From a virus, in the IMG/VR virus record IMGVR_UViG_3300007162_000005: DNA of 64,000 bases; one strand, written 5' to 3'. Each line of letters opens with the position of its first letter. The stretch's first letter is position 1. A program made the position numbers and the translations under genes. The notes below the pieces were generated by a model that saw nothing but the letters and a program-made list of their open reading frames with translations, did not search any database and was not told where the DNA came from. Positions 4,578 to 42,745 of this stretch are shown piece by piece.

Positions 4578-4584
4578 CTCTACT

Positions 4585-4593
4585 TAATTTAGC
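4585..4593 (-). promoter_or_regulatory. GCTAAATTA motif, putative late promoter
   Basis: Between a terminator and the ATG of the 981-aa gene. Confidence 0.55.
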
Positions 4594-4598
4594 CAAAT

Positions 4599-4621
4599 AA
4601 AAAAGAGTCCAATCTGACTCT
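4599..4621 (-). terminator. Rho-independent terminator
   Basis: AGAGTC-agattg-GACTCT followed by TTTTT on the minus strand. Confidence 0.75.
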
Positions 4622-4712
4622 CTGTTAAATCTAGTCCCAGTATTTTGTAATCGCTTACATGGTATAAGGTGACCTAACACAATGGTTAAGTCTTATAACT
4701 ACTAATTATCTA

Positions 4713-4949
4713 CTACCAAGCTCTTTGAATGTAGAACGTAATGTCATTGTTGCAAATATAAGTCTTGTAGTGTTTGTCATCATAGACCTTAACAACCTTC
4801 AGACCATACTTTGCTAATAAGCCATACATATACTTGTTCGCACTATCTCTTGAGGCAAAGGTTCTTTCTTTGACACCTTTAAGACCTGTACATGAAAATG
4901 TATAGTAGTGACCGTTTAACATGGTTCCTAATAGGACATCTGTATCCAT
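4713..4949 (-). CDS. Hypothetical protein (78 aa, MDTDVLL...)
   Basis: SD (AAAGGAG) precedes ATG 4949. The longer ORF-track start at 5051 overlaps a terminator-like hairpin. Confidence 0.7.
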   Translation of the reverse strand: MDTDVLLGTMLNGHYYTFSCTGLKGVKERTFASRDSANKYMYGLLAKYGLKVVKVYDDKHYKTYICNNDITFYIQRAW

Positions 4950-5006
4950 ATCTCTTTCTCCTTTGTTCACCCACCTCTGTGAAACTGTAACCCCTTTCAA
5001 AATTAA

Positions 5007-11690: not shown

Positions 11691-13550
11691 TTATTTATTT
11701 ACCTTTTCAATATGTTTGCAACTTGGATAACCCGAACATCCTAAGAATGGGCCATAACGACCTGTTCTAAATACTAGCTTCTTACCACATTCAGGACAAA
11801 CCTTATCTGTTGGTTGTGAAACAACTTCATTGGGTTGAACTTTCTTAACAGACTCTTCTAACTTCTTGTAGAAGGAAGTAAGGAAGTCAACATCGTTAAG
11901 TTTACCATTGGCAATCAAGTCAAGGTTTTCTTCCAGCTCAGATGTATAGTTAACGTTAATAATACCAGGGAAAGACTTGTCAAGGAATCTAGATAAGGAA
12001 ATACCTCTTTCGGTTGGGACAATAAACTTATCCTCAACGACACAGTAACCACGAGATTCACTTAACAATGTTTCCACAGTACTGGCAAAGGTTGATGGTC
12101 TTCCAATACCACGTGACTCTAACTCTTTAATGAAGGTAGCTTCTTTGTATCGTGAGGGTGGAGTTGTCTTCTTTTCAAATGCTTCAAGAGAAGTATCTTT
12201 TAAGGTTTCACCAACTTTAAATGTTTCTTTGGTAACTTCTTCTTCCTTATCTTCAAATGAACCATAGACAGCTTTATAACCATCAAAGATTAATTCTTTA
12301 GACACAAGGTTGAATAAATGAACATCATTCTTAATTGTGTAAGTAGTTTCACTGGTAACAGCACTTGCCATCGCAGTAGCAATGGTTCTCTTATAAATAA
12401 TATTATAGACCTTGAGTAAGTTAGCATCTTCAACGAACTTAGCTAGCTTTTCAGGTGTCATGGTTAAATCAACAGGGCGAATAGCTTCGTGACCATCCTG
12501 AACGTTCTCTGCCTTCTTGCCTTTGCGAACAGGTGAATAATACTTATCACCATAATTAGACTTGACATATTCTTCAAGTTGTGGTAAGAACTCAGGAGCA
12601 AACTCTGGGCTATCAGTACGAATGTATGTAATCAAGGCAATGTGCTTACCATTGACATCAATCCCTTCAAACAGTTTCTGAGCATAGGACATGGCTTGTT
12701 TAACACCAATGCCTAACTTATTAGAAACTTCTTGTTGGAAGGTGGATGTAATGAAAGGAGGTTTAGGATTACTTAACTTCTCTTTAGTTTCAATGTTATC
12801 AACTGTATAGACATTTGTCTTCTTACAGTCAGCGACAATCGCTTTAACTTCATCAAGGCTTCCAAGCTTCTTAACTTCTTTCTTAGCGGTTCCAACATAC
12901 TTAGCCTTGAACTCTTTACTGTTCTTGACAAAGTTAAGGAATAGGTCAAAGTAGGTTTCAGGGACAAAGTTATTTATTTCGTCTTCTCTTTCAACGATTA
13001 GCTTTAACCCGGCACTTTGAACACGACCAACACTACGAGCACTAATCTGTCTACGAGCAATAGGACTAAGTCTATAACCCACAATCTTATCCAGTTTTTG
13101 ACGGGATTGAGATGCCAATACTAAATCATCATCTATCTTGCCTGGATTGTCTATTGCTTTCAAAACAGCCTTTTCAGTGATTTCATGGAAGGTAACACGT
13201 TCATACTTACTTTCAGGAATCTTTAAAAACTTCTTAAGACTCCAAGCAATGGCCTCACCCTCACGGTCACCGTCAGTTGCGATGATGACTTTAGAGCATA
13301 GGTCAACCTGGTTCTTAATATCTTTAACGACATCTTTCTTGTCATTACTAATCTTATAGTCTGCCTTAAAACCATCATTAGGGTCAATACCAAAGTTATG
13401 CAGTCCACTATCATTTATTTCAGAAATGTGGCCCACAGAAGCTTTAATAATATAATTAGAGGGTAAAATCTCCCTAAGGGTCTTAATCTTATTAGGTGAT
13501 TCTACAATAACTAAAATACGTTCAGATGACTTACCAGCAGTTTTTGGCAT
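11691..13550 (-). CDS. topA: DNA topoisomerase IA
   Basis: TOPRIM VIVESPNK, ATDGDREGE, SVGRVQS, LITYIRTDS (catalytic Tyr), C-terminal C4 Zn ribbon. Confidence 0.95.
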   Translation of the reverse strand: MPKTAGKSSERILVIVESPNKIKTLREILPSNYIIKASVGHISEINDSGLHNFGIDPNDGFKADYKISNDKKDVVKDIKNQVDLCSKVIIATDGDREGEAIAWSLKKFLKIPESKYERVTFHEITEKAVLKAIDNPGKIDDDLVLASQSRQKLDKIVGYRLSPIARRQISARSVGRVQSAGLKLIVEREDEINNFVPETYFDLFLNFVKNSKEFKAKYVGTAKKEVKKLGSLDEVKAIVADCKKTNVYTVDNIETKEKLSNPKPPFITSTFQQEVSNKLGIGVKQAMSYAQKLFEGIDVNGKHIALITYIRTDSPEFAPEFLPQLEEYVKSNYGDKYYSPVRKGKKAENVQDGHEAIRPVDLTMTPEKLAKFVEDANLLKVYNIIYKRTIATAMASAVTSETTYTIKNDVHLFNLVSKELIFDGYKAVYGSFEDKEEEVTKETFKVGETLKDTSLEAFEKKTTPPSRYKEATFIKELESRGIGRPSTFASTVETLLSESRGYCVVEDKFIVPTERGISLSRFLDKSFPGIINVNYTSELEENLDLIANGKLNDVDFLTSFYKKLEESVKKVQPNEVVSQPTDKVCPECGKKLVFRTGRYGPFLGCSGYPSCKHIEKVNK

Positions 13551-20294: not shown

Positions 20295-21140
20295 TTACAT
20301 TTCCTCATCATTATCAGTTTGGTCTGTATTATATGCAGACATCATGATAGCTTTTAAGTCTTCTTCCGGCAATTCGTATGACTTTTTGATTTCAATTAAG
20401 TCTCTACCGAACTTTCTTCTAACTTTATTTGTAAGTATTTCTACATAACTTAATAAAGATTCATCTAATCGCCACAGAATTGTACTAATCTCTTTTTCTT
20501 TTTCTAACATCTTAATTGCTGTATTGTCGGTGTCAAGCATCTTAACTTCACGACGTTGTAGCTTTTGAATACCTTGATTAGTTAATGTCACACCGTTTAA
20601 GAAAGATAGTAACACAGACATGTACAATCTTCTTGCGATTAGGACATCATTTTTATAGGGGGACTCTTTGACTACTTCATTAATATACTTGGGTAAATAA
20701 TCTAATTGCTTATAAATTTCATCCATTAAACCTTCCCTGTAATCTGCAAGAATAGGTGCATGTAAGTTGTTTTTTAATCTCTCACCGTTAATTCTATCAT
20801 CTACTTCTGGATTAATAACTTCATCATAGTTTTCTTTTTGATAATCAACTTTAAGTGGGTAGATAACAGCTTTGATGTAGTTAAGAATCGATTTGATTGG
20901 TTTTTCTAGTTTATCTTGATTGATTGCTCTCATGTAAATTTTACTTGCAGCGTATAAAGCAAATTCATCATAGTCTGCATAATCATGAAAATACTTTGCC
21001 TTGTTGGCTAACATATAAACAAGATGATATACATATTCATAAAGAATGTTATCATCTCTGTTTGGTTTCTTTATGTGCTTATCAAAAAAGATGGCCATTT
21101 CTGTATAGGATACGTTTTTAGGTTTACTGTATGTGCTCAT
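20295..21140 (-). CDS. Hypothetical protein, possibly sigma-factor-like
   Basis: Helical; weak resemblance to region 2; adjacent to sbcCD as gp55 is to gp46/47 in T4-like phages. Confidence 0.3.
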   Translation of the reverse strand: MSTYSKPKNVSYTEMAIFFDKHIKKPNRDDNILYEYVYHLVYMLANKAKYFHDYADYDEFALYAASKIYMRAINQDKLEKPIKSILNYIKAVIYPLKVDYQKENYDEVINPEVDDRINGERLKNNLHAPILADYREGLMDEIYKQLDYLPKYINEVVKESPYKNDVLIARRLYMSVLLSFLNGVTLTNQGIQKLQRREVKMLDTDNTAIKMLEKEKEISTILWRLDESLLSYVEILTNKVRRKFGRDLIEIKKSYELPEEDLKAIMMSAYNTDQTDNDEEM

Positions 21141-23020
21141 TTTATTTTACTAAATCCCCTTTCGTCTTTTATGACGGTAATTATATCATCATAAGGAATC
21201 TTGAGCGATTCATTATGTGAGATTATAAATATGCTTTCTACATCGTTTAACTTCTTAGATATTAGATTCAATACATTGGTTGTCCCCTTTATGTCTAAGT
21301 TATCAAAGATTTCATCTAGAACGATAATGTTGCTAGTGAAGGATAGGTATTGACTCATCATGTCTCTCACGGCAAACTGAATAATAAGGTCTACTCTTTG
21401 CTTTTCTCCTCCCGATAAGTTCTCAAACGACTTGCCACAATAACTTATATCAATGTTATTGCCATCAAGTTTGAAGTCTAGCTCAGATGTTCCAAACACT
21501 TCTTGAGAGTACTCTTTTGCTTTCCTGTCAATAAAGGATATAACACTTGATAATAAGAATCCTCTAAAGTCCCTTTTAACTAAGGTAGACATCTTAGTAA
21601 TTACATCTATGTGCTTTTGCAACTCTTCTTTGTTCTTGGTGTCAGAATCAATCTTATTCTTAAGGGACTCCATTGTTGTTTGAGCCTCTTTAATCTTATC
21701 TTCTAACTTTTGTTTGTTATCAAAGAAGTTCTTCTTTTCATTCTGTAAGGATGTGATTTCATTACTTAGTTTTATCTTTTTATCTGCAAGGATGTTAATG
21801 CTGTCAACTGGCCCATACTGTAAGTTAGTAATCTCAGATTTAACCTTTGTCAACTCTTCTCTGGTTCTTGCGGTATCTAATTCATACTGCTTGTTATATT
21901 CTGCTGTCTCTTTTTCCACTGTAGAGTTATAAGCACTAATTTGAGCAATAAGGCCATCTCTCTTAGCATGATAGTCTAAATACAGTTTATCCTTCTCTGA
22001 GGTATCTGGTTTAAGTGCACCAGGTATCTTTTGACCACAGGTTGGACAAGTATCCTTAATTGCCTTTAATTTAGTGATTTCCCCCTCTAAAGTCTTAATT
22101 AAGACGTTAAGGGTAGTTAATTCTTCTTTTAAGGGCTCAAGATGCTTCTGAGCCTCTTTTGACTTGTTTGCAAGGTACTCTGACTTCTTAAGTGTTTCTT
22201 GGGATATGCTTTCAGTTAGATAACTCAAGCGTTGGTTGAAGGAATCAAGTCTTCCTTGATAGTTTTGATGTCTAATCGATATTTGGTCTAATTCCAGTTG
22301 TTTTTTAGTAATTATTGAGTCATAATCAATAACAACCTTAGTTTTAGATAGTTCTTCGGTTAGTTTAACATACTGTTGAGTATAAACAGATAGTTGAGAG
22401 GTTAATCCTAGTAAAGTATCCTCAAGAGTTCTCTTGGTAGTAGAAAGGTGGTTAGTCCTACGTTCTATCCTGTCTTTGATGTCCTGAATCATGAAGTCTG
22501 ACTTAGACAGCTTCTCTAATACCTCTTTTCGTCCACTAGGGCTGTGATTTGAAAATTTATGAGGTAAACCCTGTCCGAGGATGATTACGCTTCCTATAAG
22601 CTCTGTATTGAGGTCTGGAAGGTATTGTAGGAGGAGTTGTTGAGATTCCTTAATCCCTTTACCACTCATGTCCTTACCATTGATGACAATCTTAAGGTCT
22701 GTGCCTACATCTGAATATTCCTTAAATCGTGTAATTTCATAGTTATTCCCATCAACATTGAAGAAAAGCTTAACAAAACATCCATCCTGGCCATTTATGT
22801 TTACAATGTTAGACTTTAGCCCTTGAATGGTTTCTCCTGTTAAAGCATAGGAAATCGCAGACCAAATACTAGATTTACCTGACCCATTAGAGATGGCAGA
22901 GTCTTTAGGGTTGTTATTAACACCCTTGACCACAGAGTAACCACGGTCAGACAAGGTAAGTTCTGCATCCCCAAAAGAAAGGAAGTTATGTAAAACAACC
23001 TTTTCAAACTTAATCTTCAT
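21137..23020 (-). CDS. sbcC: SbcC/Rad50/gp46-like ATPase
   Basis: Walker A NGSGKS, CPTC zinc hook, LSGGE signature, VLDE. Confidence 0.93.
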   Translation of the reverse strand: MKIKFEKVVLHNFLSFGDAELTLSDRGYSVVKGVNNNPKDSAISNGSGKSSIWSAISYALTGETIQGLKSNIVNINGQDGCFVKLFFNVDGNNYEITRFKEYSDVGTDLKIVINGKDMSGKGIKESQQLLLQYLPDLNTELIGSVIILGQGLPHKFSNHSPSGRKEVLEKLSKSDFMIQDIKDRIERRTNHLSTTKRTLEDTLLGLTSQLSVYTQQYVKLTEELSKTKVVIDYDSIITKKQLELDQISIRHQNYQGRLDSFNQRLSYLTESISQETLKKSEYLANKSKEAQKHLEPLKEELTTLNVLIKTLEGEITKLKAIKDTCPTCGQKIPGALKPDTSEKDKLYLDYHAKRDGLIAQISAYNSTVEKETAEYNKQYELDTARTREELTKVKSEITNLQYGPVDSINILADKKIKLSNEITSLQNEKKNFFDNKQKLEDKIKEAQTTMESLKNKIDSDTKNKEELQKHIDVITKMSTLVKRDFRGFLLSSVISFIDRKAKEYSQEVFGTSELDFKLDGNNIDISYCGKSFENLSGGEKQRVDLIIQFAVRDMMSQYLSFTSNIIVLDEIFDNLDIKGTTNVLNLISKKLNDVESIFIISHNESLKIPYDDIITVIKDERGFSKIK

Positions 23021-24111
23021 TACTTGTTACCCCCACTAATATGGGTAAGTTCTTCTTTAATGACTTCAGAATCACCTATAGTTTGAATAATAAACTCAGA
23101 AAACTTCTGTAAATAGTCCATGTTGCTTAAAGATATCTCGTCCATGTATGCTTTATTTGCAACTACTTCTTCTCGATATGCAACAATCTTATGCTCTACA
23201 ATGTTAGGGACAATCTTAATCACAGAACGAAGTTGGTCCATAAGTTCTTCTTTGCATCTAAAGGTAACAACAGCATTAGTCTTTAAAAGGCTTAGTTTCT
23301 TGAAATCAGCATTTTCTTTAATATCAACATGGTAAAAGTTAAAGGCATGTGGGTTTTCGTGAAAGTCTAATGCCAATGTGTCTGTATCTAAGGTAGCAGC
23401 ATAGTGTCTATAACGATAGGCATCCTCACTAAAGTTCTGACCTGTAAGGTTACCTAAATTTAAAATAGTGTCTTTACTGTTAAGGAAGGTGCTATTATGT
23501 AAATGGCCGTTTAAGTAAAGAGTACTGTTTTCCTCAATGTCCTTTAAGTTAAAACCTTCTTTGGATTCAAACATACCATATCGAATACCTATGATATCGT
23601 TATGACTCAAGACAATGTTATGGACAGTAGGTATGCCAATAGACATCTCTGTAACATATTCTTTTACTGTCTTTCTGTTTTCTTCTAGTGTATATGGCAA
23701 AAAGTAAAGACTTGACTTCTCATCTAACACAAGTCTTTGTGGTTTATCAATGACCGAAAAGCCCTTCCTTTCAAGAGCTTTTGTTGAGCTGTACTCTAAG
23801 GAAGAAACGCTAGATTCATGGTTTCCAACCAAGAAGTAGTGAGGGACAGCCATATTCCAGGTTATATCCTGTAATGCAGTAATCTCTTCGCTATTCAGCA
23901 CAGCTGAGTCAAAGAAGTCTCCCAAACAAATAACCATATCACAGCCTAATTGCTTTGATAGGTTTTCAGCCCAATTTAAGCTCGCTATAAGGTTTTCTAA
24001 TCGTTGGGAGTACTTTATACCCCTTTTCCTTACAATCGAGCTGTATTGAGACCAGTGTGGGTCTGTATAAAACAAAATCTTACTCATTAATGTCCTCTTA
24101 TTATTATACAA
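23020..24111 (-). CDS. sbcD: SbcD/Mre11/gp47-like nuclease
   Basis: TDPHW, LGDFFD, VGNHE, SHND, NGHLH. Confidence 0.9.
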   Translation of the reverse strand: MYNNKRTLMSKILFYTDPHWSQYSSIVRKRGIKYSQRLENLIASLNWAENLSKQLGCDMVICLGDFFDSAVLNSEEITALQDITWNMAVPHYFLVGNHESSVSSLEYSSTKALERKGFSVIDKPQRLVLDEKSSLYFLPYTLEENRKTVKEYVTEMSIGIPTVHNIVLSHNDIIGIRYGMFESKEGFNLKDIEENSTLYLNGHLHNSTFLNSKDTILNLGNLTGQNFSEDAYRYRHYAATLDTDTLALDFHENPHAFNFYHVDIKENADFKKLSLLKTNAVVTFRCKEELMDQLRSVIKIVPNIVEHKIVAYREEVVANKAYMDEISLSNMDYLQKFSEFIIQTIGDSEVIKEELTHISGGNK

Positions 24112-29594: not shown

Positions 29595-29671
29595 TGGTCA
29601 CCAGTATGGGATTCGAACCCATGAATGCTACCGTGAAAGGGTAGTGAGTTAAGCCACTTCTCCAACTGGCG
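29595..29671 (-). tRNA. tRNA-Glu(UUC)
   Basis: Cloverleaf: CTACC-CTTTCAC-GGTAG anticodon arm, GTTCGAAT, encoded CCA. Confidence 0.93.
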
Positions 29672-31887: not shown

Positions 31888-33036
31888 TTATTCGGCCTCT
31901 TCTTTCTTTAAATCTACACCAAATTTCTTTTCAATATCTTCATCTAACATTTTATTAAAGGCTGTTACGCTTGTTTCATCTTTTGCTGATAACTTATCAT
32001 AAACATTTTTATGTAACTTATTCCAAACCTTCTTATTTTCAAGGAAGTAAGGTTTAAGGTTCTTTCTACCACGAATCTTTGTTAAGACTTCTCCTGTGTC
32101 AGGGTCAGTGATTCCATAAGAACCTTGAATACTATTATCAATATAACCGAAGTGTGTAGCAACGTCAATGGTATCTTCTAGGTAGTCTACACCATTAACA
32201 TAGTTAAGATGCATATAACCTACTTTTCTATCCCACTTACAGACTTTAGTTTTAAGCACGGCTACTTCAATGATATGACCTGCTGGAGACTCAGCTGCTT
32301 TAGTGAGTTTATTTCCTTCTTCATCAAAGAACTCACCACGTTTGAACATCAATCGTAATGAACAAGCATGTTTCCAAGCACGTCCGCCAGGAGTCAATAA
32401 GAAGTCACCATAACCACTTAAGTTTTCACGAACTTGGTTAATTGCTATTAAAGTTGCTTTGTATTTACGTAATAGACCGATGGCAGTGTTTGCGAATCTA
32501 GTTAAGGCAACTGAGATACCACCCATTTGCTTCTTTTCCATAGACTCATCAGAAATTTGCATCGGAACAAGGGTAGCAATAGAGTCAAATATCATTAACC
32601 CAACTTCACCTGTCTTTAACATGTCTAATGCCATATCAAAGATTTGTTCTGCGTTTTGACCTTCAGGTCTAATGATGATGGTAGGAACTTTAGCATCTTC
32701 ATCCATGTTATAACCCAACTTCTTGGCCCAGATGGGGTCAGCTGTTCCTTCATTATCTAATAAGATAATAGAACGTGGTTTCTTAGGGTTACGTTTGATT
32801 TCTTCCTTCTGATAAGAACCAGCAATCATAAAGGCTGTAGTGGTTTTACCGCTTCCTTCAGCACCGCTTAATTCAATGATACGGCCTTCAGGGATTCCAC
32901 CATAGACACAATAGTCAAATGTGGGGGAACCTAGGGATAATACACCATCAATAGCTAAGTCATCGACTCCAACCTTGACAACGTTTTCTCCATACTTCTT
33001 TCCTATTTCTTTTAATACCGACGATAAGTCACCCAT
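31888..33036 (-). CDS. recA: RecA/UvsX recombinase
   Basis: GGIPEGRIIELSGAEGSGKTT, FDSIA, INQVRE, TPGGRAWKH. Confidence 0.95.
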   Translation of the reverse strand: MGDLSSVLKEIGKKYGENVVKVGVDDLAIDGVLSLGSPTFDYCVYGGIPEGRIIELSGAEGSGKTTTAFMIAGSYQKEEIKRNPKKPRSIILLDNEGTADPIWAKKLGYNMDEDAKVPTIIIRPEGQNAEQIFDMALDMLKTGEVGLMIFDSIATLVPMQISDESMEKKQMGGISVALTRFANTAIGLLRKYKATLIAINQVRENLSGYGDFLLTPGGRAWKHACSLRLMFKRGEFFDEEGNKLTKAAESPAGHIIEVAVLKTKVCKWDRKVGYMHLNYVNGVDYLEDTIDVATHFGYIDNSIQGSYGITDPDTGEVLTKIRGRKNLKPYFLENKKVWNKLHKNVYDKLSAKDETSVTAFNKMLDEDIEKKFGVDLKKEEAE

Positions 33037-33079
33037 AATAAATCTCCTTTTCTATTTATTATACAACTTTTTAATAAAG

Positions 33080-33460
33080 TTATTCATACAGATTTAGTAT
33101 ATTTTCATCTTCTTCATCTGAGTCGTAATCGTAATAAACAATGTTTTCTATAAGATATTGCTCTTTAGCATCTTCGTAATACTTTTCTTTTAACCACTCT
33201 ATAAACTTGAGGTCTTTTGTGTATAAAGTAAATGCATCTAATGATTTTGTGTTCCATAGTGTTTCAAGGTTTTTAACAAATTCTCTTGCACCATCCTGAA
33301 GATACCATGTAGAGTATTGATACTTAATCCCATACTCTTCTTCAAATAAGTACTGTGTAATATCATTCAGGTTCTCTAAAACGTTAAATGCGTATTCCAT
33401 GTCCACATTAGGGACCAAGTCTGAACTAATTGACAACGGTATATTAATCGTGTGGTACAT
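33080..33460 (-). CDS. Hypothetical protein
   Basis: 126-aa ORF. Confidence 0.65.
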   Translation of the reverse strand: MYHTINIPLSISSDLVPNVDMEYAFNVLENLNDITQYLFEEEYGIKYQYSTWYLQDGAREFVKNLETLWNTKSLDAFTLYTKDLKFIEWLKEKYYEDAKEQYLIENIVYYDYDSDEEDENILNLYE

Positions 33461-34074
33461 TATTCATTCCCGTCAAACCCACTTCTATTTTGTTGTGGGC
33501 CGAATGAAGACAATTGCATTTCAGTTCCTTTTACTGTAAGAATCTTTCTCAAGGTATTCATCATGTCTTGGGCACTTTGTAATTTACCTTTAACCACTTT
33601 ATATGCATGGTCATAGATAGATGCCACAACAGATTCATATTGAGAAGACAATTCAGCTTGAGCCTGTAACTCTGCAACAGTAGTCTTATTCTTTCCTGTG
33701 CCTGCTTCTTTGACTTGATTTGATAGGTAGCTCTTTGAATAGACTTCCTTTGAAGCACTTCTTGCCATATCTGCATAAACACCAAGTTGCTCTAACTTAT
33801 CAATCATAAAGTAAACCATGTTAGACAATTCTAAGTAATATTTATTTAATGTATTGACATTTGCGTTTCCGTCTTTAATGCATTCAACATATAAATCACT
33901 CATTAAGTTATCTAGAGGCTCACTGTATTTCTTGATTACCTCAGCACAAGCGTTGTTAAAGTAGGTAACGTTAACAGTTGTTTCTGCTAATATTTTTTCT
34001 ACTTTAGTCGTATCTAATCCTGTTAATATTGTATCAGACACTTTATTCTCCTTCCTTAGTGGCCATAAGGACAC
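33460..34074 (-). CDS. Helical hypothetical protein (UvsY-like position)
   Basis: 204-aa ORF between the recU-like and recA genes. Confidence 0.55.
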   Translation of the reverse strand: MSLWPLRKENKVSDTILTGLDTTKVEKILAETTVNVTYFNNACAEVIKKYSEPLDNLMSDLYVECIKDGNANVNTLNKYYLELSNMVYFMIDKLEQLGVYADMARSASKEVYSKSYLSNQVKEAGTGKNKTTVAELQAQAELSSQYESVVASIYDHAYKVVKGKLQSAQDMMNTLRKILTVKGTEMQLSSFGPQQNRSGFDGNE

Positions 34075-34510
34075 TATAATCAGATGTCATAAACACTCTT
34101 TTTTTAACTGAAGGTATATTTATAAATCTATAACCTTCTGTATCTATTGTAGTAATGTTTACTGATTTTTTACCATCTGTCATCATTTTAGTAATGGTTG
34201 ACACGGGAACGTATATTACACGGTCGTGTTCATAGAACCATATTACAACTCCTGCTCTTACACCTTCTATTCCAACTTTAGACGAAAGCTTTTCATACTG
34301 GCTAAGATTCTGGAAAGGGAAGGTGTTTCCTTTAATAGTCTTGGCCTCTAAATAAAATATGTAAGGCATCTTGTAACCAATGAAGTCACTAATGTTTGAT
34401 ATAGTCTTATAACCACTGACAGAGTCATATAACCTATCAATGCTGGAATTTGGCATACTTGCCTTCCAGTCTTCCTTTAAAACTAATTCAAATTGCTTTC
34501 CTTTGGACAT
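34043..34510 (-). CDS. recU: RecU-like Holliday junction resolvase
   Basis: GKQFE...SDFIGY...YLEAKT. Confidence 0.7.
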   Translation of the reverse strand: MSKGKQFELVLKEDWKASMPNSSIDRLYDSVSGYKTISNISDFIGYKMPYIFYLEAKTIKGNTFPFQNLSQYEKLSSKVGIEGVRAGVVIWFYEHDRVIYVPVSTITKMMTDGKKSVNITTIDTEGYRFINIPSVKKRVFMTSDYSVLMATKEGE

Positions 34511-34512
34511 AA

Positions 34513-35628
34513 TTAATTAGCTTGAACCTCTGGAATAATGTTACTAATATCATTTCGTTTAATGACAGCTGCCCGGTTATTCCCAAAAGATACAACAATA
34601 TACTGTCCTTCAGATGTTTCTAAAGTTAACTTTAAATCATTTGTATCAAAACTTGCTTCATATGGTTTCTTTAATTTATCAACTTTATTAACATACTTAA
34701 CTTCTTCATTGTTTTCTTTTTTAGAGTCCAACACTGTTACACCATCAACTCCAAAACTCATGTGTGTAGAACCAAGGTCTGAACCGTTTTTAGAGAATAA
34801 AGACAATCTGTTGATAGATTCTAATAAGGTTAATCTGTCAATCGTAATAGTGTAGTCATAGGTTTCTTCAGTCCATTTTCTAATTCCTTGAACCGGGAAC
34901 TTATTGACAAGCTCTTCTTTAGTTGTAATAATAGATGTTAAAGTTACTTGGTCATCAGAGAAAGAAACCTTTTGGGCTACAACACCGCTTTCAAGTGCAT
35001 CGAATCCCATGTTAAAGTTAACAGATTCTGATTTAAATAGTTTAAACAGTCTGACAATCTTTTCAGTTAAAGTAAGAACTACCTTTTGGTCTAGTGTAAA
35101 GTTATTAACACATGCACCGTTTGCAAACGTAATGGCACCTTTTTCATCAATATAGAAGAGTTTTTGAACAGGGGAAGCACCACCATTCTTGAGTAATTCC
35201 TTGGTGTTATACTTAAGGATAGATTGTAAGATAGAGTTTTTAATACTGAAAGTATTTGTTACATTTTCAATGTTAATTTTAGGCAATTCAACAATCTCAG
35301 TGTCATCAAAAATCATTGGTATCTTATAGTTACCATTTGCTTTTAAAACTAATGTATTATCCACAACATCTAGTTCCAAGGTTCCTGTGGTTATTTTACT
35401 GATAAGATTAAGGAAGAGCTGGGCATTAACTACAGCATGAAGCTTAACTTCAATGTCTAATGGCATCTTTACAGACACATAGTATTCCTTATTAGTAACG
35501 TTTAAGTTTAATACCTTACCGTTGGCTTCTAATTCTAAGGTTTCATTAACGACAGATGAAATGTTAGTGTCTACAGCTTCTAAAATCTTTTTGCAGCTTT
35601 CTTGGAACGACTTTGTTTGAATAATCAT
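34513..35628 (-). CDS. dnaN: Beta sliding clamp-like protein
   Basis: 371 aa (typical DnaN length), three-domain alpha/beta pattern, next to the polymerase, dnaX-type loader in the same block. Confidence 0.7.
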   Translation of the reverse strand: MIIQTKSFQESCKKILEAVDTNISSVVNETLELEANGKVLNLNVTNKEYYVSVKMPLDIEVKLHAVVNAQLFLNLISKITTGTLELDVVDNTLVLKANGNYKIPMIFDDTEIVELPKINIENVTNTFSIKNSILQSILKYNTKELLKNGGASPVQKLFYIDEKGAITFANGACVNNFTLDQKVVLTLTEKIVRLFKLFKSESVNFNMGFDALESGVVAQKVSFSDDQVTLTSIITTKEELVNKFPVQGIRKWTEETYDYTITIDRLTLLESINRLSLFSKNGSDLGSTHMSFGVDGVTVLDSKKENNEEVKYVNKVDKLKKPYEASFDTNDLKLTLETSEGQYIVVSFGNNRAAVIKRNDISNIIPEVQAN

Positions 35629-35655
35629 ATTTATGTCCTTTCTTTATTATACAAC

Positions 35656-36749
35656 TTATTCAGTGAGTATTCTTCTAATTTCTTCTGGAGACATTTCGGT
35701 ATGCTCTAAAATAATGTGTTGAATTGCATCCTCTTTGCTTAAGCTTGGAAGTATCTTTTTATACTCCTGTTTTAATGTGCTAACATAATCGTTATAGTAC
35801 CAGTGCTCACTAACATCAGCATCACATTTGAATGGTACAGAAGAAACATCATCAATACAGGTCTTCATAACAGAAGTAAGTCTTTTAGCTACTTTATCTG
35901 CATTTTCTTTAGGGCATTCACCAATTAACTCATCATGCACCGTTAGAAGTAATTTAAACCCTAACTTATTTAACTCTTCATCTCTAAAGAGTTTATTCAT
36001 GGCAATCTTAGTCATGGTAGCCGAACCACCTTGGATTCTAGCATTAACACACTGACGTTCTGCCTGAGCAATAAAACCACCATTATTCTTTATCTTAATA
36101 CCGTATTTTGCTGCATCTTGAGTTACAGCATCAACTTCTTTTTTAAATTTGGCATTTTCTAATTTTTTATAGAAGAGAGCAATGACTTTATCATCTTGTT
36201 TTCTATCAGCAGTGCCAAGAAGTGGATTAAAGGGGGATTGGTCTTTTGAAGCATTATTATAGGATATTTCAAATCTAGGTAAGGATATATCCGGCAATCT
36301 ACGTCTTCTGCCCCACAAGTCTTCTACATAGCCATTTTTCTTGGCAAAGGCTGTGGTTTCATCCATCCAACCCTTTACTTTAGGGAAAGAGTTATAGAAA
36401 CCATCAATAATAGACTGGGCTTCTTGAATAGAGCTTCCAATGCTTTCAGCAACAGCTGTAACACCTTGACCATACATAATACCTAACAAAAGTGTTTTAC
36501 AGGCATTACGTCTCTTTTTACCTTCTGGATTAGGTGTTCCATCTTGACGGAACTCCATGTTATCCCAGTAATCATTCTTATAAACACTACTAGCGATGGT
36601 AGCGTATAAGTCTTTGCCATCTTTATAAGCTTGAATCATATCTTCGTCACCGGAGTAGTTTGAAAGCATTCGTGGTTCTTGTTGCGAACTCACGAAAAGT
36701 CACTTCCAACTAAAGTATAAGGAACTCTAGTTTTAATTGACTTTTTCAT
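35656..36749 (-). CDS. polA: Family A DNA polymerase, polymerase-domain gene, interrupted by an 8-nt insert in motif A (segments 36693-36749 and 35656-36684)
   Basis: Strong SD AGGAGGTG then MKKSIKTRVPYTLVGSDFS-stop; after 8 nt QQEPR continues to motif B (RRNACKTLLLGIMYG) and motif C (TVHDE). Confidence 0.88.
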
Positions 36750-36812
36750 TGACACCACCTCCTTTTCCTGTTTTTAATAAAACATTCTTCATACTATATT
36801 ATACAACTTTCT

Positions 36813-37535
36813 TTATAGCTTGAACCATTTAATATTATCTACCACAATAACCTTTTTACCATCGGGGTGTTTCTTATTGCTATTATGGGAGGATACATAT
36901 GTAATAGGCTCTCCTTTAATAGATTTTTTAATTTTCCTTTGGAACGTACACTCAGCATAGTTATCACCAAACGGATGAAAGGCTTCAAACCACCACTTTG
37001 TTGCATCTTTTATGGAATGGAACTCAAACCTTTCTCCAGTATTGAGTACACAATAGCAACCTACTGAACGAGTATCACCGGAGCCGAAGTTCTTGTTCCC
37101 CTTCATAGCCTCAGAAATTTTATCTCTGTGCTCTTTAGAGAAGGGTTTCTTCTCTCTATATGCCTTCATTGATAATGAAATCTTGCTTCTTACATCTTTA
37201 CTTCTCATTTTAGCATCATGGTTATCCTTTACCAATCCCACGTTCATAGGGTTATCATCACCGCCATTTGTCATATTATACCCATTATTGAAGGAATCAT
37301 ATAAAGATACATAATATTTCTCTTTTTTAAGAAGTTCTTCATAATTGTCTGTTTCGTCTATTATTTCAATGGTGAAGGCTTCTATACCATACTTCCTCAT
37401 TGAGCTATATAGATGCCTCTGGTCACCGTTTTTTAGTCTGGTAAGGTGTCCATACCACCTATCCTCTAAACTCTTCTCTGTGATGCCAATATAGCACTTA
37501 TTCGTCATCCTGTTAGTAATCTTATACACAATCAT
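36813..37535 (-). mobile_element. Free-standing GIY-YIG homing endonuclease (NUMOD3 motifs) between the two polA genes
   Basis: IVYKITN...CYIGIT...RW..H...E..Y...NGYN; FSKEHRDKISEAMKG. Confidence 0.9.
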
Positions 37536-37554
37536 ATATTATTTCTCCTTTACC

Positions 37555-37578
37555 TAATTTAGCTGTGACTTTTCACAG
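37555..37578 (-). promoter_or_regulatory. GCTAAATTA late-type motif with an abutting palindromic CTGTGA-AAAG-TCACAG element (operator-like)
   Basis: Directly upstream of the endonuclease SD; shares GTGACTTTTC with polA motif A in inverted orientation. Confidence 0.6.
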
Positions 37579-37595
37579 TAAGATATAGGTGGGTG

Positions 37596-39176
37596 TTAAA
37601 TATATAAATATGTGTACTTTTCTTCAGTTTTCACTCTTTTTACTACATCTCCTTCAATAATATCACCTGGAACAACATCTTTGACACGTTTCCACCCATT
37701 ACTTGTTTGAACCTCTGAGATATTACTTACTTCATAAAACTCATCCTTTGATATTTCTACGTCCTTGTAGTCTGTCTTGGCTTTAAACATCATACGTATT
37801 TCTTTATTTGATGCTGGAAGCTGTTGTAGGTTAGGGTCACTAGAACTGAATCGTCCAGTGGCTGCACCATATTGATTAAAATGACCGTGAACTCTTCCAT
37901 CAATAGGATTAACCTTTTGAGGTAAGGAATCGATAAAAGCATCTAATAGTTTAACTAAACCACGTCTTTCTAAGATAAGTTTAGATAGAGGTATATTGAT
38001 AGCCTCAAGAATATCTTCCCCAGTACCACGTGGACTTTCTTTACTTACTTGCTCAACACCAATTACATCATATAACAGGATAGCAAGTTGAGTCGGACTT
38101 CCTAAGTTAATAACATCAGGTAATTGTTCTGATTTGGATTTACCACCATCTTCACCTGACTTCTTTTTAGGTTTAGTGTTAGCATCAGGAGTTGTTCTCC
38201 AGGCATCTATTCTAGATTTATACTTGTCTAATTCAACGGCAATTCTTTTATCTAATTCATCTAACTTAGCATGATATTTGACACTAAGTCTCTTTGCGTA
38301 TTCTTTGTCAAGTTCAATACCAGCGAGTTCCATTTCTGCAACTACACGAATAACAGGCATTTCTACTTCACGGAAAAGGTTATTAACTTTTTTATACTCT
38401 TCACTTTCCATGATTGGTTTTTGATATTCATATAGTTTATAAGTCATGTAAGGGTCTGTAGCAGCATATAATGCAAAAACTTCAGGTGGAAAGATAGCAT
38501 ATTCTTCTTTTTCAAATAAGTCTTCAATAGAGTATTTTTCTTGTTCTGAATCAATATGTAAAATATACTGTTGTTTTAATCCTGCCAATTCATTTTCATC
38601 AATAAGCTTGGCAGCAATCATTGTATCCCAATAGCAGGGAAGTTCGATACCACAAGTTGTTTTGATAACTTGGAAATCAAACTTTGAGTTGTGCATGATG
38701 GTCAAAATTTGAGCATCTACAACACGAGACAGTTCTTCTTTTATATCTTGTTCTGTAAGTTGATTTGGGAGCTTTTCTCCGGTTTTATAATCAACATGGT
38801 TTACAGGAATGTATACTTTTTTATTATTAGGAGTATAGACACAGAGACCCATTAACTTTGCAGTTAGTGGGTCTAGGGAGTTATTTGTTTCAGTGTCTAT
38901 AGCGATGATGTCGTTATGAATAGCTTGAGTTATATAATTAGAGAACTCTTGTTTCGTTCTAATAACTAAAACATCATCTTTTTGTTTTTCTAAGGTTTTA
39001 TTAACTTTCTCAGTGATTAAAGAAATCTTTTCTTCTACCGATATTTTCTTAGACTTGATTTTCTTTTCAACAGTGACTTTAGCCTCTTTGGGCTTTTTGA
39101 CCTTGTTGATTATTTTTTGGGTCTTTTCCGCTGAGTTAGAAACACCCAATTCAAAATTAAAGATATCGGCATTCAT
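37596..39176 (-). CDS. polA: Family A DNA polymerase N-terminal gene (3'-5' exonuclease, thumb, start of palm) with a Hint-like tail
   Basis: AIDTET, HNSKFD, YAATD; TGRFSSSDPNLQQLP...IRMMFKA, then a non-polymerase tail EVQTSNGWKRVKDVVPGD. Confidence 0.9.
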   Translation of the reverse strand: MNADIFNFELGVSNSAEKTQKIINKVKKPKEAKVTVEKKIKSKKISVEEKISLITEKVNKTLEKQKDDVLVIRTKQEFSNYITQAIHNDIIAIDTETNNSLDPLTAKLMGLCVYTPNNKKVYIPVNHVDYKTGEKLPNQLTEQDIKEELSRVVDAQILTIMHNSKFDFQVIKTTCGIELPCYWDTMIAAKLIDENELAGLKQQYILHIDSEQEKYSIEDLFEKEEYAIFPPEVFALYAATDPYMTYKLYEYQKPIMESEEYKKVNNLFREVEMPVIRVVAEMELAGIELDKEYAKRLSVKYHAKLDELDKRIAVELDKYKSRIDAWRTTPDANTKPKKKSGEDGGKSKSEQLPDVINLGSPTQLAILLYDVIGVEQVSKESPRGTGEDILEAINIPLSKLILERRGLVKLLDAFIDSLPQKVNPIDGRVHGHFNQYGAATGRFSSSDPNLQQLPASNKEIRMMFKAKTDYKDVEISKDEFYEVSNISEVQTSNGWKRVKDVVPGDIIEGDVVKRVKTEEKYTYLYI

Positions 39177-39190
39177 TTTGTTAATACCTA

Positions 39191-39991
39191 TTAAAACTTA
39201 TAACGTTGAGGTCTGCCTTCGATTGGGCTAGATTGACCTGTTGTGGTAGGCTTTGGTTGTTCGGGAGCAGGGGTCGTAGGTTGAGGAGCTGGTTTAGGAG
39301 TTGCAGGAGCAGCAGAAACTGCTGGTCTAGAATAACTACCAGTCTTTTCAGCAATAGCTTCAGTGCGTGGGAAATCACCAGTTTTTAAGAAGGTGTTAAT
39401 TTCATCAGCAGTCTTAACTAAGTAAAAGCTTCCAGCCATTTTGAAACCTTCAAAGTCAGCAAAATCTTTGACATAGATTTCAGGTTTGTAGATTTCTTGA
39501 CGAACAGGGATAATGTCATAGGTGGTGTCAGTGCTTCCACGTGTACCACGACGTTTAACCTTGAAAACGAAGTTGGTTAAATCACCATATTCATCCATGA
39601 ATGATTTTAATTCACGTGCGAACTTGGCAGGACGTTCCCAAACACGTGCTTTAGGCACAATGTTTCCGTTGTCATCTTTAACGTATTCAATAAGCTTAAC
39701 GTAGAACTTATCAACAACTTTATTACCACTTAAGCAAAGTGGGCATTTAGCCATTGGTTCGTTTGCTTCACGTAAGCAGAAAACACGTTTGTAAAGTTCT
39801 TTTCCATCTTTACCTGTTGTTTTCACAACGTGAACAGTAACAATATTAAATTCTTGTACTGAACTATAGGCGAAACGCACAACTGCGTCATCACCATCGT
39901 CTTTGAGCGAAAAGTAACCAACTTTATATTCCTTGTTGGATGTGTTAGTACTTTTCTTGTTTTCGTAATCTGCGAAACTAATGTTTGCCAT
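39191..39991 (-). CDS. ssb: Single-stranded DNA-binding protein (gp32-like, Zn-binding)
   Basis: FSLKDDGDDAVVRF, H...C...CPLC, G.RGSTDTTY, low-complexity C-terminal tail. Confidence 0.75.
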   Translation of the reverse strand: MANISFADYENKKSTNTSNKEYKVGYFSLKDDGDDAVVRFAYSSVQEFNIVTVHVVKTTGKDGKELYKRVFCLREANEPMAKCPLCLSGNKVVDKFYVKLIEYVKDDNGNIVPKARVWERPAKFARELKSFMDEYGDLTNFVFKVKRRGTRGSTDTTYDIIPVRQEIYKPEIYVKDFADFEGFKMAGSFYLVKTADEINTFLKTGDFPRTEAIAEKTGSYSRPAVSAAPATPKPAPQPTTPAPEQPKPTTTGQSSPIEGRPQRYKF

Positions 39992-40022
39992 AATTTACCT
40001 CTTTATGTTTTTTTTTATTTAT

Positions 40023-40181
40023 TTATTCTGCGGCTTCTGTTTTGGCTGCTGGTTGTTGAAGTTGTTTTTCTGCTTGAGCTCTAATGTTAGCAATTAAGCC
40101 AGCCACTTGAGCGAAGGGTAATTGCGATAACGCATTTAACACCAACTGTGCTTCTTCAACTTTTAATTCTAAGTGAATCAT
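40023..40181 (-). CDS. Small helical protein (52 aa), absent from the ORF track
   Basis: SD AAGGAG; MIHLELKVEEAQLVLNALSQLPFAQVAGLIANIRAQAEKQ... Confidence 0.7.
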   Translation of the reverse strand: MIHLELKVEEAQLVLNALSQLPFAQVAGLIANIRAQAEKQLQQPAAKTEAAE

Positions 40182-40238
40182 TGTTAATCTCCTTTCTGTG
40201 CTTCTATATTATTATACAACTTTTTTTAAACTTTTAAG

Positions 40239-41264
40239 TCATATAGTAACTTTTCTCCCCAATAGTTTTGAATCATACACTTTTTTAAGGGATTCATAGT
40301 TTAATTGTTTATTTTCTAATAAAGATATAAAGGTTTGTTTATCCAAATCGTTAATATCTTTATCCTCAGGAATATCGAGAACATCTATAAATACATCTTT
40401 TCTTATGTTTTTGATGAATTTTGCTGTCCCACGTCTTCCTGCTTCATCACCGTCAAATGCTAGAATATAGTGTCTAACATTGCTTCTATTGAATGTTTCA
40501 AACTGTTTTGTGGTAATCCCAACTCCGAAGGTTGCAACTGCCGGTATACCATAAGAAAGACATGTTAAGGCATTGATTTGACTTTCTACCACTACAACAT
40601 AGGATATGTCGTTTTCTTTAATGTGATTCATTAAATATATGGGTTTTTCCTTAGCTGCATCTATAATAAAGGTTTTATCCTTTACGGAACGTCTAGTAAG
40701 CATATAAAGCTTTCCAAATTCATCCCAAACAGGAAATACAATACTGCTAGTCTTAGGGTCATACTTAACCTTAAATCTTTCACATACCTCTTTAGATAAC
40801 TTACGGGTTGTCATATATGGGTGGTAGGATTCAAAGGTATTTAGTATAGATTCATCTAAGTAATCTGGTTCTTTGTCTTTATGCCTTGTTAAGTCAATAA
40901 GTGGTAAAGTTAGTTCCCTTTCAACAAATGTATTGCCAAAACGTTCTAATAACCACTCTCTTCCAAAAGACTCATTCTTTTCAAAGCAACCAGAAACAAA
41001 TTGAGGGAAATTACCGTGTGCGTTACAAACGAAACAGTGGTAATCTCCTTCTTCAAATTCATTATGCTTAGCAGCAAAGACAGTACATGCTGGTTTCTTT
41101 TCTTTATGGTCAGCATGAAATGGACATGTGACAACAAAGTGATTACCACGTTTAGTGATATCTCTCAAAAACATATCACCATTATCTGATGTTTCTTGAC
41201 GGATTAATTGAAGAATCTTTTCAATAGGTTCTTCTATGTATCTACTATCGTTTATTTTAATCAT
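40239..41264 (-). CDS. dnaG: DNA primase (Zn finger plus TOPRIM)
   Basis: CPFH..H.E....C..C; VVESQINAL; FDGDEAG; KDIND. Confidence 0.9.
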   Translation of the reverse strand: MIKINDSRYIEEPIEKILQLIRQETSDNGDMFLRDITKRGNHFVVTCPFHADHKEKKPACTVFAAKHNEFEEGDYHCFVCNAHGNFPQFVSGCFEKNESFGREWLLERFGNTFVERELTLPLIDLTRHKDKEPDYLDESILNTFESYHPYMTTRKLSKEVCERFKVKYDPKTSSIVFPVWDEFGKLYMLTRRSVKDKTFIIDAAKEKPIYLMNHIKENDISYVVVVESQINALTCLSYGIPAVATFGVGITTKQFETFNRSNVRHYILAFDGDEAGRRGTAKFIKNIRKDVFIDVLDIPEDKDINDLDKQTFISLLENKQLNYESLKKVYDSKLLGRKVTI

Positions 41265-41451
41265 TTAATGTTAATAATCTTTTTAAATCTTCTATTTCTT
41301 TTCTAATAGACTTTGCTTGTTTTAAAAGGCTTTCTCTAATCGGTTGAGTGTCTTTTTCATTGTAAGTTGAAGAATAAGAAATATAAACCTTTTCAAGGTG
41401 TTCTAATTCCTTAATTTTACTTAATATTTTAGATTTTTCAGTTTTTTCCAT
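41257..41451 (-). CDS. Small hypothetical protein (start corrected to MEKTEK)
   Basis: The longer ORF-track version overlaps dnaB. Confidence 0.55.
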   Translation of the reverse strand: MEKTEKSKILSKIKELEHLEKVYISYSSTYNEKDTQPIRESLLKQAKSIRKEIEDLKRLLTLND

Positions 41452-41455
41452 AATT

Positions 41456-42745
41456 TTAGAATACATCCTCTCCTGTTGATTCTTTATTGGGTTGTGTGGG
41501 GTAATCATTCCCGGTTTGTTGTGGCTGTTGTGGTTGTTGACCTTCTTCCACTTCTTCAGGGATAAAGGTGAAGTCACCCTTATTGAAGTCTACTAAGTAA
41601 GATAACACTTTACCATTAGCACTGTCTCTTGATTTAACAAGGTTAAGTTTAATAATGTCTTCATCTTTTTCTAAAAAGATAATGCAGGTGCTGTCTTGAC
41701 CAATACGGTCTGACTGTGCGATTTGAGTTGTATCAACACCGCCACCTTCGTTCTTAGTTCTGTTTTGTTGAGAAACAGAAACGATAGGAACACGTTTAAG
41801 TACTTGAAGGTTCTTTAAGTCTTTAGAGATGTTAGCAGCTTTTTCAACAGGTGTCTTGCCGTGTCTATAGTCTTCTAATAAAGACAGCTGGTCTACGAAA
41901 AGAATATCTAAACCTTCTTTTTCAATAAACAATCGTAAGGCATTAACATCTGCTGGCCCATTAATCATGTTAGGTGTTAAAACCTTAAGGGAACCAGTAA
42001 ACATGGTAGGAAGCTGTTTAATGAATTGTTCATATTCACTTTGAATAGAGATATTACCGTGAATAAGACTACCGTTAGGAATATGTCCGACAAGGGTGTC
42101 AATACGATAACCGACTTTACGTTCACTCATTTCACCTGAGTAGATTCCAACTTTAAGACCTTGCTTAGCAGCTGCTGCAGCACATTTTAAGAGAATCCAA
42201 GATTTACCATAGTTAGTACGAGCAACGATGGTAGCAAGTTCTTCTTGTCTGTCCCAACCACCAATAATTTGGTCAAGTTCTCTAAAACCAGTTGAGATAT
42301 AGTACTTGTTAAAGTCTTTAGTTCTTTCTAAGTAAGCATCATAACGTGTTGTATCTTTAAGGATATCAACCGATTGTAAAGAAACACCTACATAGAAGTT
42401 TTCTGCTTCTTCTTGATAAAGTCTGGTAGCCTCATCAACCTTGCCTGCCATTAAAAGAGTTCTTACCTTATTAAAGACCTCAGCAAGTTTTCTTGTCTTA
42501 TAGTCGGTAAATAACTCTTCAATAAGATATTGAGGAGTTTCATTTACTTTGATAACTTCAAATTCTTGAAAGGATGATAAAAAGCTTTCTAAGTCTGGGA
42601 TATTACCATATTTATCCAAGTGTCTTTTGATATAGGCAAATTCTCCCTTATAGTCACTAAAATGACCTTCATTGAGATTGTTTAAAACAATAAGGGAAGA
42701 ATCCTTAGAATTTAATACGTAATTTAAAAATTGTAATTGAATCAC
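41456..42745 (-). CDS. dnaB: Replicative helicase, DnaB/SF4
   Basis: ARTNYGKS, SGEM, FVDQL, SQQNR, SDRIGQD. Confidence 0.93.
   Translation of the reverse strand: MIQLQFLNYVLNSKDSSLIVLNNLNEGHFSDYKGEFAYIKRHLDKYGNIPDLESFLSSFQEFEVIKVNETPQYLIEELFTDYKTRKLAEVFNKVRTLLMAGKVDEATRLYQEEAENFYVGVSLQSVDILKDTTRYDAYLERTKDFNKYYISTGFRELDQIIGGWDRQEELATIVARTNYGKSWILLKCAAAAAKQGLKVGIYSGEMSERKVGYRIDTLVGHIPNGSLIHGNISIQSEYEQFIKQLPTMFTGSLKVLTPNMINGPADVNALRLFIEKEGLDILFVDQLSLLEDYRHGKTPVEKAANISKDLKNLQVLKRVPIVSVSQQNRTKNEGGGVDTTQIAQSDRIGQDSTCIIFLEKDEDIIKLNLVKSRDSANGKVLSYLVDFNKGDFTFIPEEVEEGQQPQQPQQTGNDYPTQPNKESTGEDVF

Follow-up and report, generated by a model that had tools for sequence, protein, structure and literature searches.

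The 64,000-nt stretch of viral DNA analysed here (IMG/VR record IMGVR_UViG_3300007162_000005, from a subsurface metagenome; referred to as the window) carries a family A DNA polymerase gene, polA, that is split into two genes, and the downstream gene is interrupted in its motif A codons by an 8-nt insert that contains a stop codon. A homing endonuclease gene sits between both polymerase genes. The features of this locus are, from upstream to downstream:

37596-39176, minus strand: gene for the N-terminal polA subunit, 526 aa (open reading frame; Pfam PF01612 and PF00476; aligned to unsplit relatives).
37599-37766, minus strand: C-terminal tail of the N-subunit, about 56 aa, not in unsplit polA, a mini-domain modelled as all-beta.
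36813-37535, minus strand: free-standing gene for a 240-aa GIY-YIG homing endonuclease that has a NUMOD3 motif (Pfam PF01541, E 6.5e-9, and PF07460).
36753-36762, minus strand: extended Shine-Dalgarno (SD) sequence GGAGGTGGTG of the leader open reading frame (from the sequence).
36693-36749, minus strand: leader open reading frame MKKSIKTRVPYTLVGSDFS, 19 codons, with ATG at 36749-36747 (from the sequence).
36669-36696, minus strand: hairpin predicted by RNAfold, in which UUCGUG-A-GUUC (take-off codon, stop and gap) pairs with GAAC-CACGAA (Glu-Pro-Arg codons).
36691-36693, minus strand: GTG overlapping the TGA stop (GTGA), a possible restart codon with the product M-SSQQEPR... (from the sequence).
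36685-36692, minus strand: 8-nt insert TGAGTTCG, consisting of the stop TGA (36692-36690), GT (36689-36688) and the landing codon TCG (36687-36685) (from the sequence and independent assemblies).
35656-36684, minus strand: resumed polA frame QQEPR..., 342 codons and a stop, including the remainder of motif A as well as motifs B and C (identity to the unsplit relative L017, 76%).

The 526-aa product combines the 3'-5' exonuclease with the first part of the family A polymerase domain; it follows the polymerase sequence up to ...PNLQQLPASNKEIRMMFKAKTDY and then continues into the extra tail and a stop. The leader consists of 11 new residues (MKKSIKTRVPY) followed by a recoded motif A strand, TLVGSDFS, and it thus ends in the ...GSDFS of motif A with TCG (36695-36693) as its last codon, hereafter the take-off codon. 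Beyond the insert the frame resumes at 36684 with CAA CAA GAA CCA CGA. Deleting the 8 nt yields DFS-QQEPR as in unsplit relatives and a joined reading of 19 + 342 = 361 codons; the product proposed by the gene caller starts at the GTG at 36693, has 345 aa and lacks the catalytic Asp. A preliminary description, made from the letters alone, had proposed this arrangement (SD, ATG, TCG-TGA-GT-TCG-CAA...), the restoration of motif A and of a 361-aa subunit by removal of the 8 nt, and the absence of the catalytic Asp from the GTG-initiated product. The arrangement matches the minus strand exactly, the joined reading was confirmed against unsplit relatives and the open reading frame call agrees. For the junction hairpin, RNAfold gives a minimum free energy of -22 kcal/mol with z = -2.1 against shuffled sequences (86-nt window around the junction).

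The preliminary description had named an assembly error as the first thing to check. The insert is genuine, because it is unchanged in an independent contig from a freshwater study, which covers 36398-36845 with 0 differences, and because a wastewater contig (about 93% identical, covering 36218-37700) has no indel there, its sole indels lying at 36236-36264, about 430 nt away. In total, the insert is present in three studies. A megablast search among phages returned no match to a near-identical phage record.

IMG/VR and public metagenomes yielded about 185 related loci (individual loci are denoted L001 and so forth), and classification of motif A in each of them revealed four states of polA: (i) unsplit polA, with 56 distinct peptide contexts and 0 with an insert; (ii) split polA without an insert (L004-L006, L018/L049, L054/L057 and L063); (iii) split polA with a short stop-containing insert in motif A, of which there are 24 types including that of the window; and (iv) polA with true group I introns of 243-1100 nt located exactly between DFS and QQEPR. 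At motif A the unsplit phiCTP1 and Dp-1 read ...IRKMFIPDDGNILIGGDYSQQEPR..., and L017, which is the closest unsplit relative of the window, reads ...FKAKEGYVLVGSDWSQQEPR.... The insert-free split alleles have an N-gene with the same kind of tail and a C-gene with its own SD, ATG and leader of about 10 residues. From this leader the frame stays open through ...LVGSDFSQQEPR..., and in L004, L018, L054, L057 and L063 it was seen to continue into QQEPR. The fourth state also occurs in culture, in the Brevibacillus phage Jenst, which has a group I intron at DFS|QQ of polA together with an endonuclease gene. The split-plus-insert form was not found in any cultured phage; the matches to Jenst and BCD7 were through native polymerase sequence only.

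The inserts follow a common set of rules. Their lengths are 1, 5, 6, 7, 8, 9, 10, 12, 14 and 15 nt, all three frames occur, and motif A is interrupted at four different codon boundaries; apart from the stop and landing triplet, the inserts have no sequence in common. The 8-nt element of the window, which had been described as a single element, is real and turns out to be one member of a family of inserts of 1-15 nt. The stop codon follows directly after the last in-frame codon in 24/24 types. The triplet just 5' of the resume codon has its first two bases in common with the take-off codon in 18 of the 23 types with inserts of at least 5 nt, and at least two of the three bases are shared in 22 of these 23. 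At neighbouring offsets such a match is found in 0-1 types, except at +2, where TCT followed by CA creates TCA, and in 23/24 types no earlier cognate-like triplet is present within the gap. The match at the landing position is far beyond chance (binomial P ~5e-20, uncorrected for shared ancestry).

The rules hold at the different boundaries. Behind Ser the landing triplet is TCN in 15/19 types and TTG, GCG, GCT or CCG, each with two of three bases shared, in the other 4. Behind the Glu of QQE, as in L019, the take-off codon is GAA and the landing triplet GAA, GAG or GAT. Behind the Pro of QQEP the insert of L066 is a single U (CCC-UAG-G), where CCC would re-pair as CCU and restore QQEP-R. In-frame inserts are found in L013 (TCT-TAG-TCT) and L064 (TCT-TAA-TCT). 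At Ser sites, take-off is from TCT or TCG in 19/19 insert types, versus 42/92 insert-free contexts with one of these two codons. One further sequence, TCT TAA GTGCAGGG CAA GAG ATG in L100 (~1090-1116), could not be classified.

The identity of the stop codon is equally constrained. Three lineages with TAG-to-Gln recoding, which have 3-5 in-frame TAGs in the same gene, use TGA or TAA after the take-off codon and never TAG. Stop identity follows the code of the phage, which argues that the codon has to stay undecoded. Recoding of this kind was noted in L007/L029/L111, L089/L110, L047 and L098, where 3-5 TAGs stand in frame in the C-terminal part of polA in place of conserved Gln codons (Q*EPR, YS*D, AE*I) and the real termination is at TAA. 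Separately, L004-L006 have one in-frame TGA about 370 nt past QQEPR. It takes the place of the Trp codon in the conserved YVEDLWGRRRR and suggests that TGA is read as Trp in that lineage.

Inserts are found only behind a leader of 17-23 codons (38-39 in one lineage) with a strong SD. An extended SD of the GGAGGTGAT type precedes 22/30 insert-bearing leaders, and shorter SDs are found in the 5 insert-free split alleles; the extended form could be a compensation for an inefficient hop or could reflect shared ancestry of the cassette. A basic leader start, MKKS[IV]K, is common, but it also has a structural role. Gaps of at least 9 nt are complementary to the take-off region in the manner of a take-off stem-loop in L138 (CUUCUC-GUAA-GAGAAG), L047 (GGACUUU/AAAGUCU), L019 (GCUCAGG-AAUAG-CCUGAGC), L124 and L086. 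Both sides of the insert are under purifying selection: G[SA]D[FY]S is retained in every leader, and the ratio of non-synonymous to synonymous substitution rates (dN/dS) downstream of the insert is 0.02-0.11 among relatives sharing an insert, leaving out the pairs L086/L130 and L019/L023 because indels misalign them.

The insert is part of a larger unit. A tree built from the C-terminal part needs no fewer than 12 changes to account for the split-plus-insert state, and alleles in this state are scattered among unsplit ones. Within a single phage species, unsplit alleles exist next to a Ser-site insert (TAGTTG) and a Glu-site insert (TGACTGAA). The unsplit L010 and the cassette-bearing L008 are about 95% identical on both flanks, and the divergent block between these flanks extends from an upstream group I intron (Rfam RF00028, detected in L001, which is near-identical) precisely up to the landing codon; a recoded stretch of 27 nt in the block of L008 is 78% identical to the parental sequence. 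We conclude that in the window a mobile cassette has split the family A polymerase into two genes and that this cassette comprises the tail of the N-gene, the GIY-YIG gene, a new promoter-like sequence, the SD, the 11-residue leader, the eight recoded codons for TLVGSDFS and, at its 3' end, the 8-nt gap.

The endonucleases of the cassettes belong to several families, including GIY-YIG, LAGLIDADG, NUMOD3-type and others. It had been predicted that the insert should co-occur with the endonuclease, and this prediction holds in one direction: 13/13 lineages with a homing endonuclease gene (HEG) have an insert and 5/5 insert-free split lineages lack a HEG (Fisher P = 0.048), but 11 insert lineages are without one, having either lost it or never had it. 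The gap occupies the target site of intron and endonuclease and, therefore, plausibly protects the DNA of its carrier from cleavage; by this reasoning, the gap probably makes the DNA immune to endonucleases that cut uninterrupted DFS|QQ. A group I intron spanning the whole HEG region was considered for the window and rejected: there is no Rfam match in 33000-42000, the tail is conserved as protein in 24 lineages, and HEG-less alleles keep both tail and leader.

polA is a hot spot for mobile elements. L001 has a further group I intron at NPNL|QNIP (1060-1293; Rfam RF00028, 76 bits), and a group I intron at LLLG|IMYGRG of L018 (~3900-5000) contains a GIY-YIG open reading frame. In Jenst (L186, NC_028805, 3740-5580) a second intervening stretch follows further on, and the exons are annotated as three 'DNA polymerase' coding sequences around an 'endonuclease'.

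Combining the anatomy of the locus with the rules of the inserts, we consider it likely that the 8 nt are bypassed by a programmed short "stop-hop" analogous to that of T4 gene 60/MobA. In this model, (i) ribosomes would start at the ATG at 36749 and translate 19 codons, (ii) they would pause with peptidyl-tRNA-Ser on the UCG at 36695-36693 and the UGA stop in the A site, (iii) the peptidyl-tRNA would unpair, the mRNA would slide by 8 nt and the tRNA would re-pair with the identical UCG at 36687-36685, and (iv) decoding would resume at CAA. The product would be a 361-aa C-terminal subunit with an intact motif A (...GSDFSQQEPR...) and the tryptic junction peptide VPYTLVGSDFSQQEPR. The hop is supported because it is the only mechanism that fits all insert variants in the relatives, and the insert-free split relatives encode directly the protein design that it would give. 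Bypassing had been put forward in the preliminary description; the insert variants in relatives support it, and the locus mirrors the MobA/gene 60 cassette (preprint 10.1101/2022.08.31.505936). We infer the hop, its efficiency and its function in immunity from the comparison of sequences.

Several observations weigh against this model. Synthetic stop-hops in E. coli are reported to be inefficient, and no stimulator of the kind that a replicative polymerase subunit made by hopping would need was identified. Among the candidates for such a stimulator, an SD-like motif in the Gly-Ser/Ala-Asp codons was rejected as a general one, as these codons vary too much among lineages, and no phage tRNA-Ser that might favour hopping is present in the window. 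The gap of the window forms no take-off hairpin with upstream sequence and pairs only with downstream codons. L046 (~3480-3500), which reads CAA|TAGCTCTT|GAG, has no cognate landing triplet and is the sole insert type to break the landing rule. The 24 insert types are not all independent, as similar 7-nt forms may share ancestry, and the P values are inflated accordingly. The GTGA of the window, with GGAAGTGA six bases upstream, allows a restart, and L001 and L038 also have a start codon at the stop. Finally, the RNA-library contigs described below concern a relative only.

Start codons at the stop belong to the alternative that fares best, although we regard it as unlikely, namely termination and restart giving rise to a three-piece polymerase. 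Here, a 19-aa peptide with the strand of the catalytic Asp would be freed at the UGA, translation would restart at the GUG or after sliding of a deacylated tRNA-Ser to the second UCG, and a separate C fragment would assemble non-covalently with the other pieces. The stop/start overlaps in the window (GTGA), in L001 (TAG-TTG) and in L038 (ATGA) are in line with this, as are the stop/start overlaps at the junctions between N-gene and C-gene in L004, L013 and L018. Moreover, PMC11194080 describes spontaneous sliding of 70S ribosomes and re-initiation on polycistronic mRNAs, and sliding with a deacylated tRNA would also account for the matched codons. However, a start codon at the stop is found only in these three, in 12/24 types, among them those of L013, L015 (TCG-TAGCG) and L086 (15 nt), the resume frame has no ATG, GTG or TTG anywhere in its open part, and an ATG at the landing position, which would be an easy fix, has evolved in 0/24. 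In addition, the leader kept by all split alleles would be missing from the C fragment, a duplicated Ser or Glu would compete for a single structural position, and the hop product equals the protein encoded by insert-free relatives. The GTGA-coupled three-piece polymerase considered in the preliminary description thus fits the window but not the half of the types without a start codon. Restart at GTGA may nevertheless take place alongside the hop in the window.

Alternatively, each lineage could have its own recoding event, i.e. a -1 or +1 frameshift or readthrough, with 2-5 extra residues tolerated between the Asp and the Glu of motif A. Re-reading of a G by a -1 shift does open the frame in the window, where it would give DFS-VSS-QQEPR, in agreement with the earlier remark that such a shift adds 3 residues to the active site, and in-frame inserts could in principle be read through. 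Against this, three unrelated mechanisms would be needed across close relatives, and the D-x4-E spacing is invariant in 92/92 insert-free contexts. The junction in the window, which needs a +8 or a -1 shift, has no slippery heptamer (X XXY YYZ), and re-pairing on an overlapping codon in the new frame is available only in L066 (CCC-U). The cognate landing triplet would be left without explanation, and the match between stop identity and genetic code argues for a codon that has to stay undecoded. We consider this scheme very improbable.

Removal of the insert at the RNA level before translation, as a mini-intron or by another excision, has in its favour that the site is a genuine group I intron site in relatives and that the insert of the window is flanked by U and ends in G, the latter point being the one on which the preliminary description had based an RNA-excision alternative. 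The inserts of 1-15 nt, however, have nothing in common beyond stop and landing triplet, and Rfam finds no intron in 33000-42000, though group I introns at other places in relatives are detected by it. No RNA run was listed for the stretch of the window itself. Two metatranscriptome runs, each of a different study, contain 292-nt contigs that span the 6-nt insert of L013 unchanged, these being assembled contigs from libraries that may contain DNA; the only 'joint' at this site belongs to a related strain with an unsplit allele and 20 mismatches in the flanks. RNA excision is very unlikely because one insert is of 1 nt and because the insert of a relative is retained in RNA-library contigs.

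A broken gene, i.e. a pseudogene with a frameshift whose phage is defective or relies on another polymerase, would account for the plain reading, in which the first product is cut short at 19 aa and the C fragment lacks the catalytic Asp, but it is hardly credible given that the interruption is kept in at least 12 independent placements in the tree, that the insert is identical in independent samples and that no other DNA polymerase is found among the 10 large open reading frames scanned, and decay is excluded because of the dN/dS of 0.02-0.11 and the G[SA]D[FY]S in every leader.

The proposed hop shares its design with T4 gene 60. The MobA/gene 60 element consists of an N-terminal extension, a homologous region that is 67-81% identical to its parent and an insert ending at the landing codon (10.1101/2022.08.31.505936). 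As in that system, the cassette that splits a replication gene brings together a HEG, an additional N-terminal extension, a recoded region of homology and a gap that is not translated in the proposed hop; its end coincides with the landing codon, the stop lies directly after the take-off codon, and the landing codon is read by the same tRNA (10.1101/2022.08.31.505936, PMC5009743). Stem-loops in the take-off region may have their counterpart in the longer gaps of the relatives. The two systems differ in that (i) the gene encodes a family A DNA polymerase rather than the topoisomerase II large subunit, (ii) the gap is 1-15 nt (8 in the window) versus 50 (20 in one clade), (iii) take-off is at codon 17-23 versus 46, with a much shorter nascent chain, (iv) the take-off residue is Ser (or Glu or Pro) versus Gly or Asp, and (v) the HEGs are of several families (GIY-YIG, LAGLIDADG, NUMOD3-type). 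No sequence homology between the two was seen.

Other systems share single elements with the polA inserts. Synthetic stop-hops in E. coli, in which for instance one amino acid is specified by 9 nt, have the same succession of codon, stop and cognate codon as L013 and L064, whereas the polA inserts are natural, conserved, in an essential-looking gene, in all three frames and up to 15 nt in length. CCC-UAG-G in L066, the 1-nt end of the series, resembles prfB-type +1 frameshifting; in contrast, the window needs a move of 8 nt to a non-overlapping codon and has no autoregulatory logic. The 'byp' elements of Magnusiomyces capitatus mitochondria are likewise short mobile inserts bypassed in translation, with an imperfect match (2/3 bases) possible (PMC5009743), but they are 27-55 nt long, are read by mitochondrial ribosomes whose A site holds an unassigned sense codon, and are not part of a homing endonuclease cassette. 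Genes fractured or split by free-standing HEGs, such as those with split inteins in Dassa et al. 2009, split gp43 of T4-like phages and NrdA of Aeh1, similarly encode a replication enzyme in two genes with a HEG between them (PMC2677866). Those genes have no stop-containing gap in the downstream gene, and the polA junctions lack conserved splicing residues.

Few systems of natural translational bypassing have been described, i.e. T4 gene 60 with its homologues and the yeast mitochondrial byps, and according to a 2016 review no natural in-frame stop hopping was known (PMC5009743). In the literature that we searched, neither bypassing in polA nor a natural short stop-hop is described. If the model is correct, these inserts would be the first natural family of very short translational bypasses, tied to homing-endonuclease cassettes, and the design of gene 60 (endonuclease, new N-terminus, recoded stretch and bypassed scar) would have evolved a second time in another replication gene. 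Such a second origin would support the idea that bypass gaps arise as immunity scars at the target sites of endonucleases and introns. The natural series of gaps (+1, 5, 6, 7, 8, 9, 10, 12, 14 and 15 nt) at four codon boundaries, with three tRNA species and two genetic codes, would provide a ready-made mutational series for the mechanism of short-range bypassing. As gene callers split or truncate these polymerases, phage annotations and the polymerase phylogenies built on them are wrong at the motif A site.

A bolder extension, which we put forward only tentatively and think is rather less likely than not to hold, is that the short stop-hops of homing-endonuclease cassettes are efficient and general and constitute a portable immunity device. 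A module of about 80 nt, which would comprise the extended SD, the basic leader (MKKS[IV]K...), the UCU/UCG take-off codon, the stop and the cognate landing codon, would then make ordinary bacterial ribosomes skip 5-15 nt at high yield, and phage genes now annotated as truncated or frameshifted would often contain comparable scars, silent in translation, where endonucleases cut.

The tail of the N-subunit is conserved in every split allele, and an alignment of 24 lineages gives the consensus DEV.T..GWK....L.VGD.I. It has no Pfam match, and a search of the ESM Atlas gave nothing specific. An AlphaFold2 model (pLDDT 79) has five strands; the best matches in the PDB are inteins and are weak (E 0.5-1), and the tail correspondingly has a weak resemblance to the N-half of the Hint/intein fold, as in fractured split-intein genes. 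An active intein or split intein was rejected as an explanation: protein splicing is not expected because neither a Cys/Ser1 nor a His-Asn plus nucleophile is conserved at the junctions in the 24-lineage alignment; the +1 residue is Val, Ile, Thr or Ala. It is possible that the tail is a Hint-derived docking module for the leader; complex prediction with the tail and the leader region of L063 gave scores of 0.21 and 0.02, which speak neither for nor against this.

The window as a whole is a phage replication module; its large open reading frames (11691-61859) include genes for a topoisomerase (11691-13550), SbcCD-like proteins (21137-24111), a RecA-like protein (31888-33036), a beta-clamp-like protein (34513-35628), a primase (40239-41264), a DnaB helicase (41456-42745), an SNF2 helicase and ribonucleotide reductase. 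In the 64,000 nt, ARAGORN predicts no transfer-messenger RNA and four tRNAs (Glu-ttc at 29595-29671, Arg-tct, Thr-tgt and Ile-tat). A 'J8/7-like' sequence, TATAATATAGTATGAAG at ~36795, was considered as an intron element and discarded in favour of the simpler reading as a -10 box. Between the stop of the N-gene and the start of the GIY-YIG gene, CTGTGA-AAAG-TCACAG (37564-37579, minus strand) forms a perfect 6-bp hairpin at the position of a terminator or operator.

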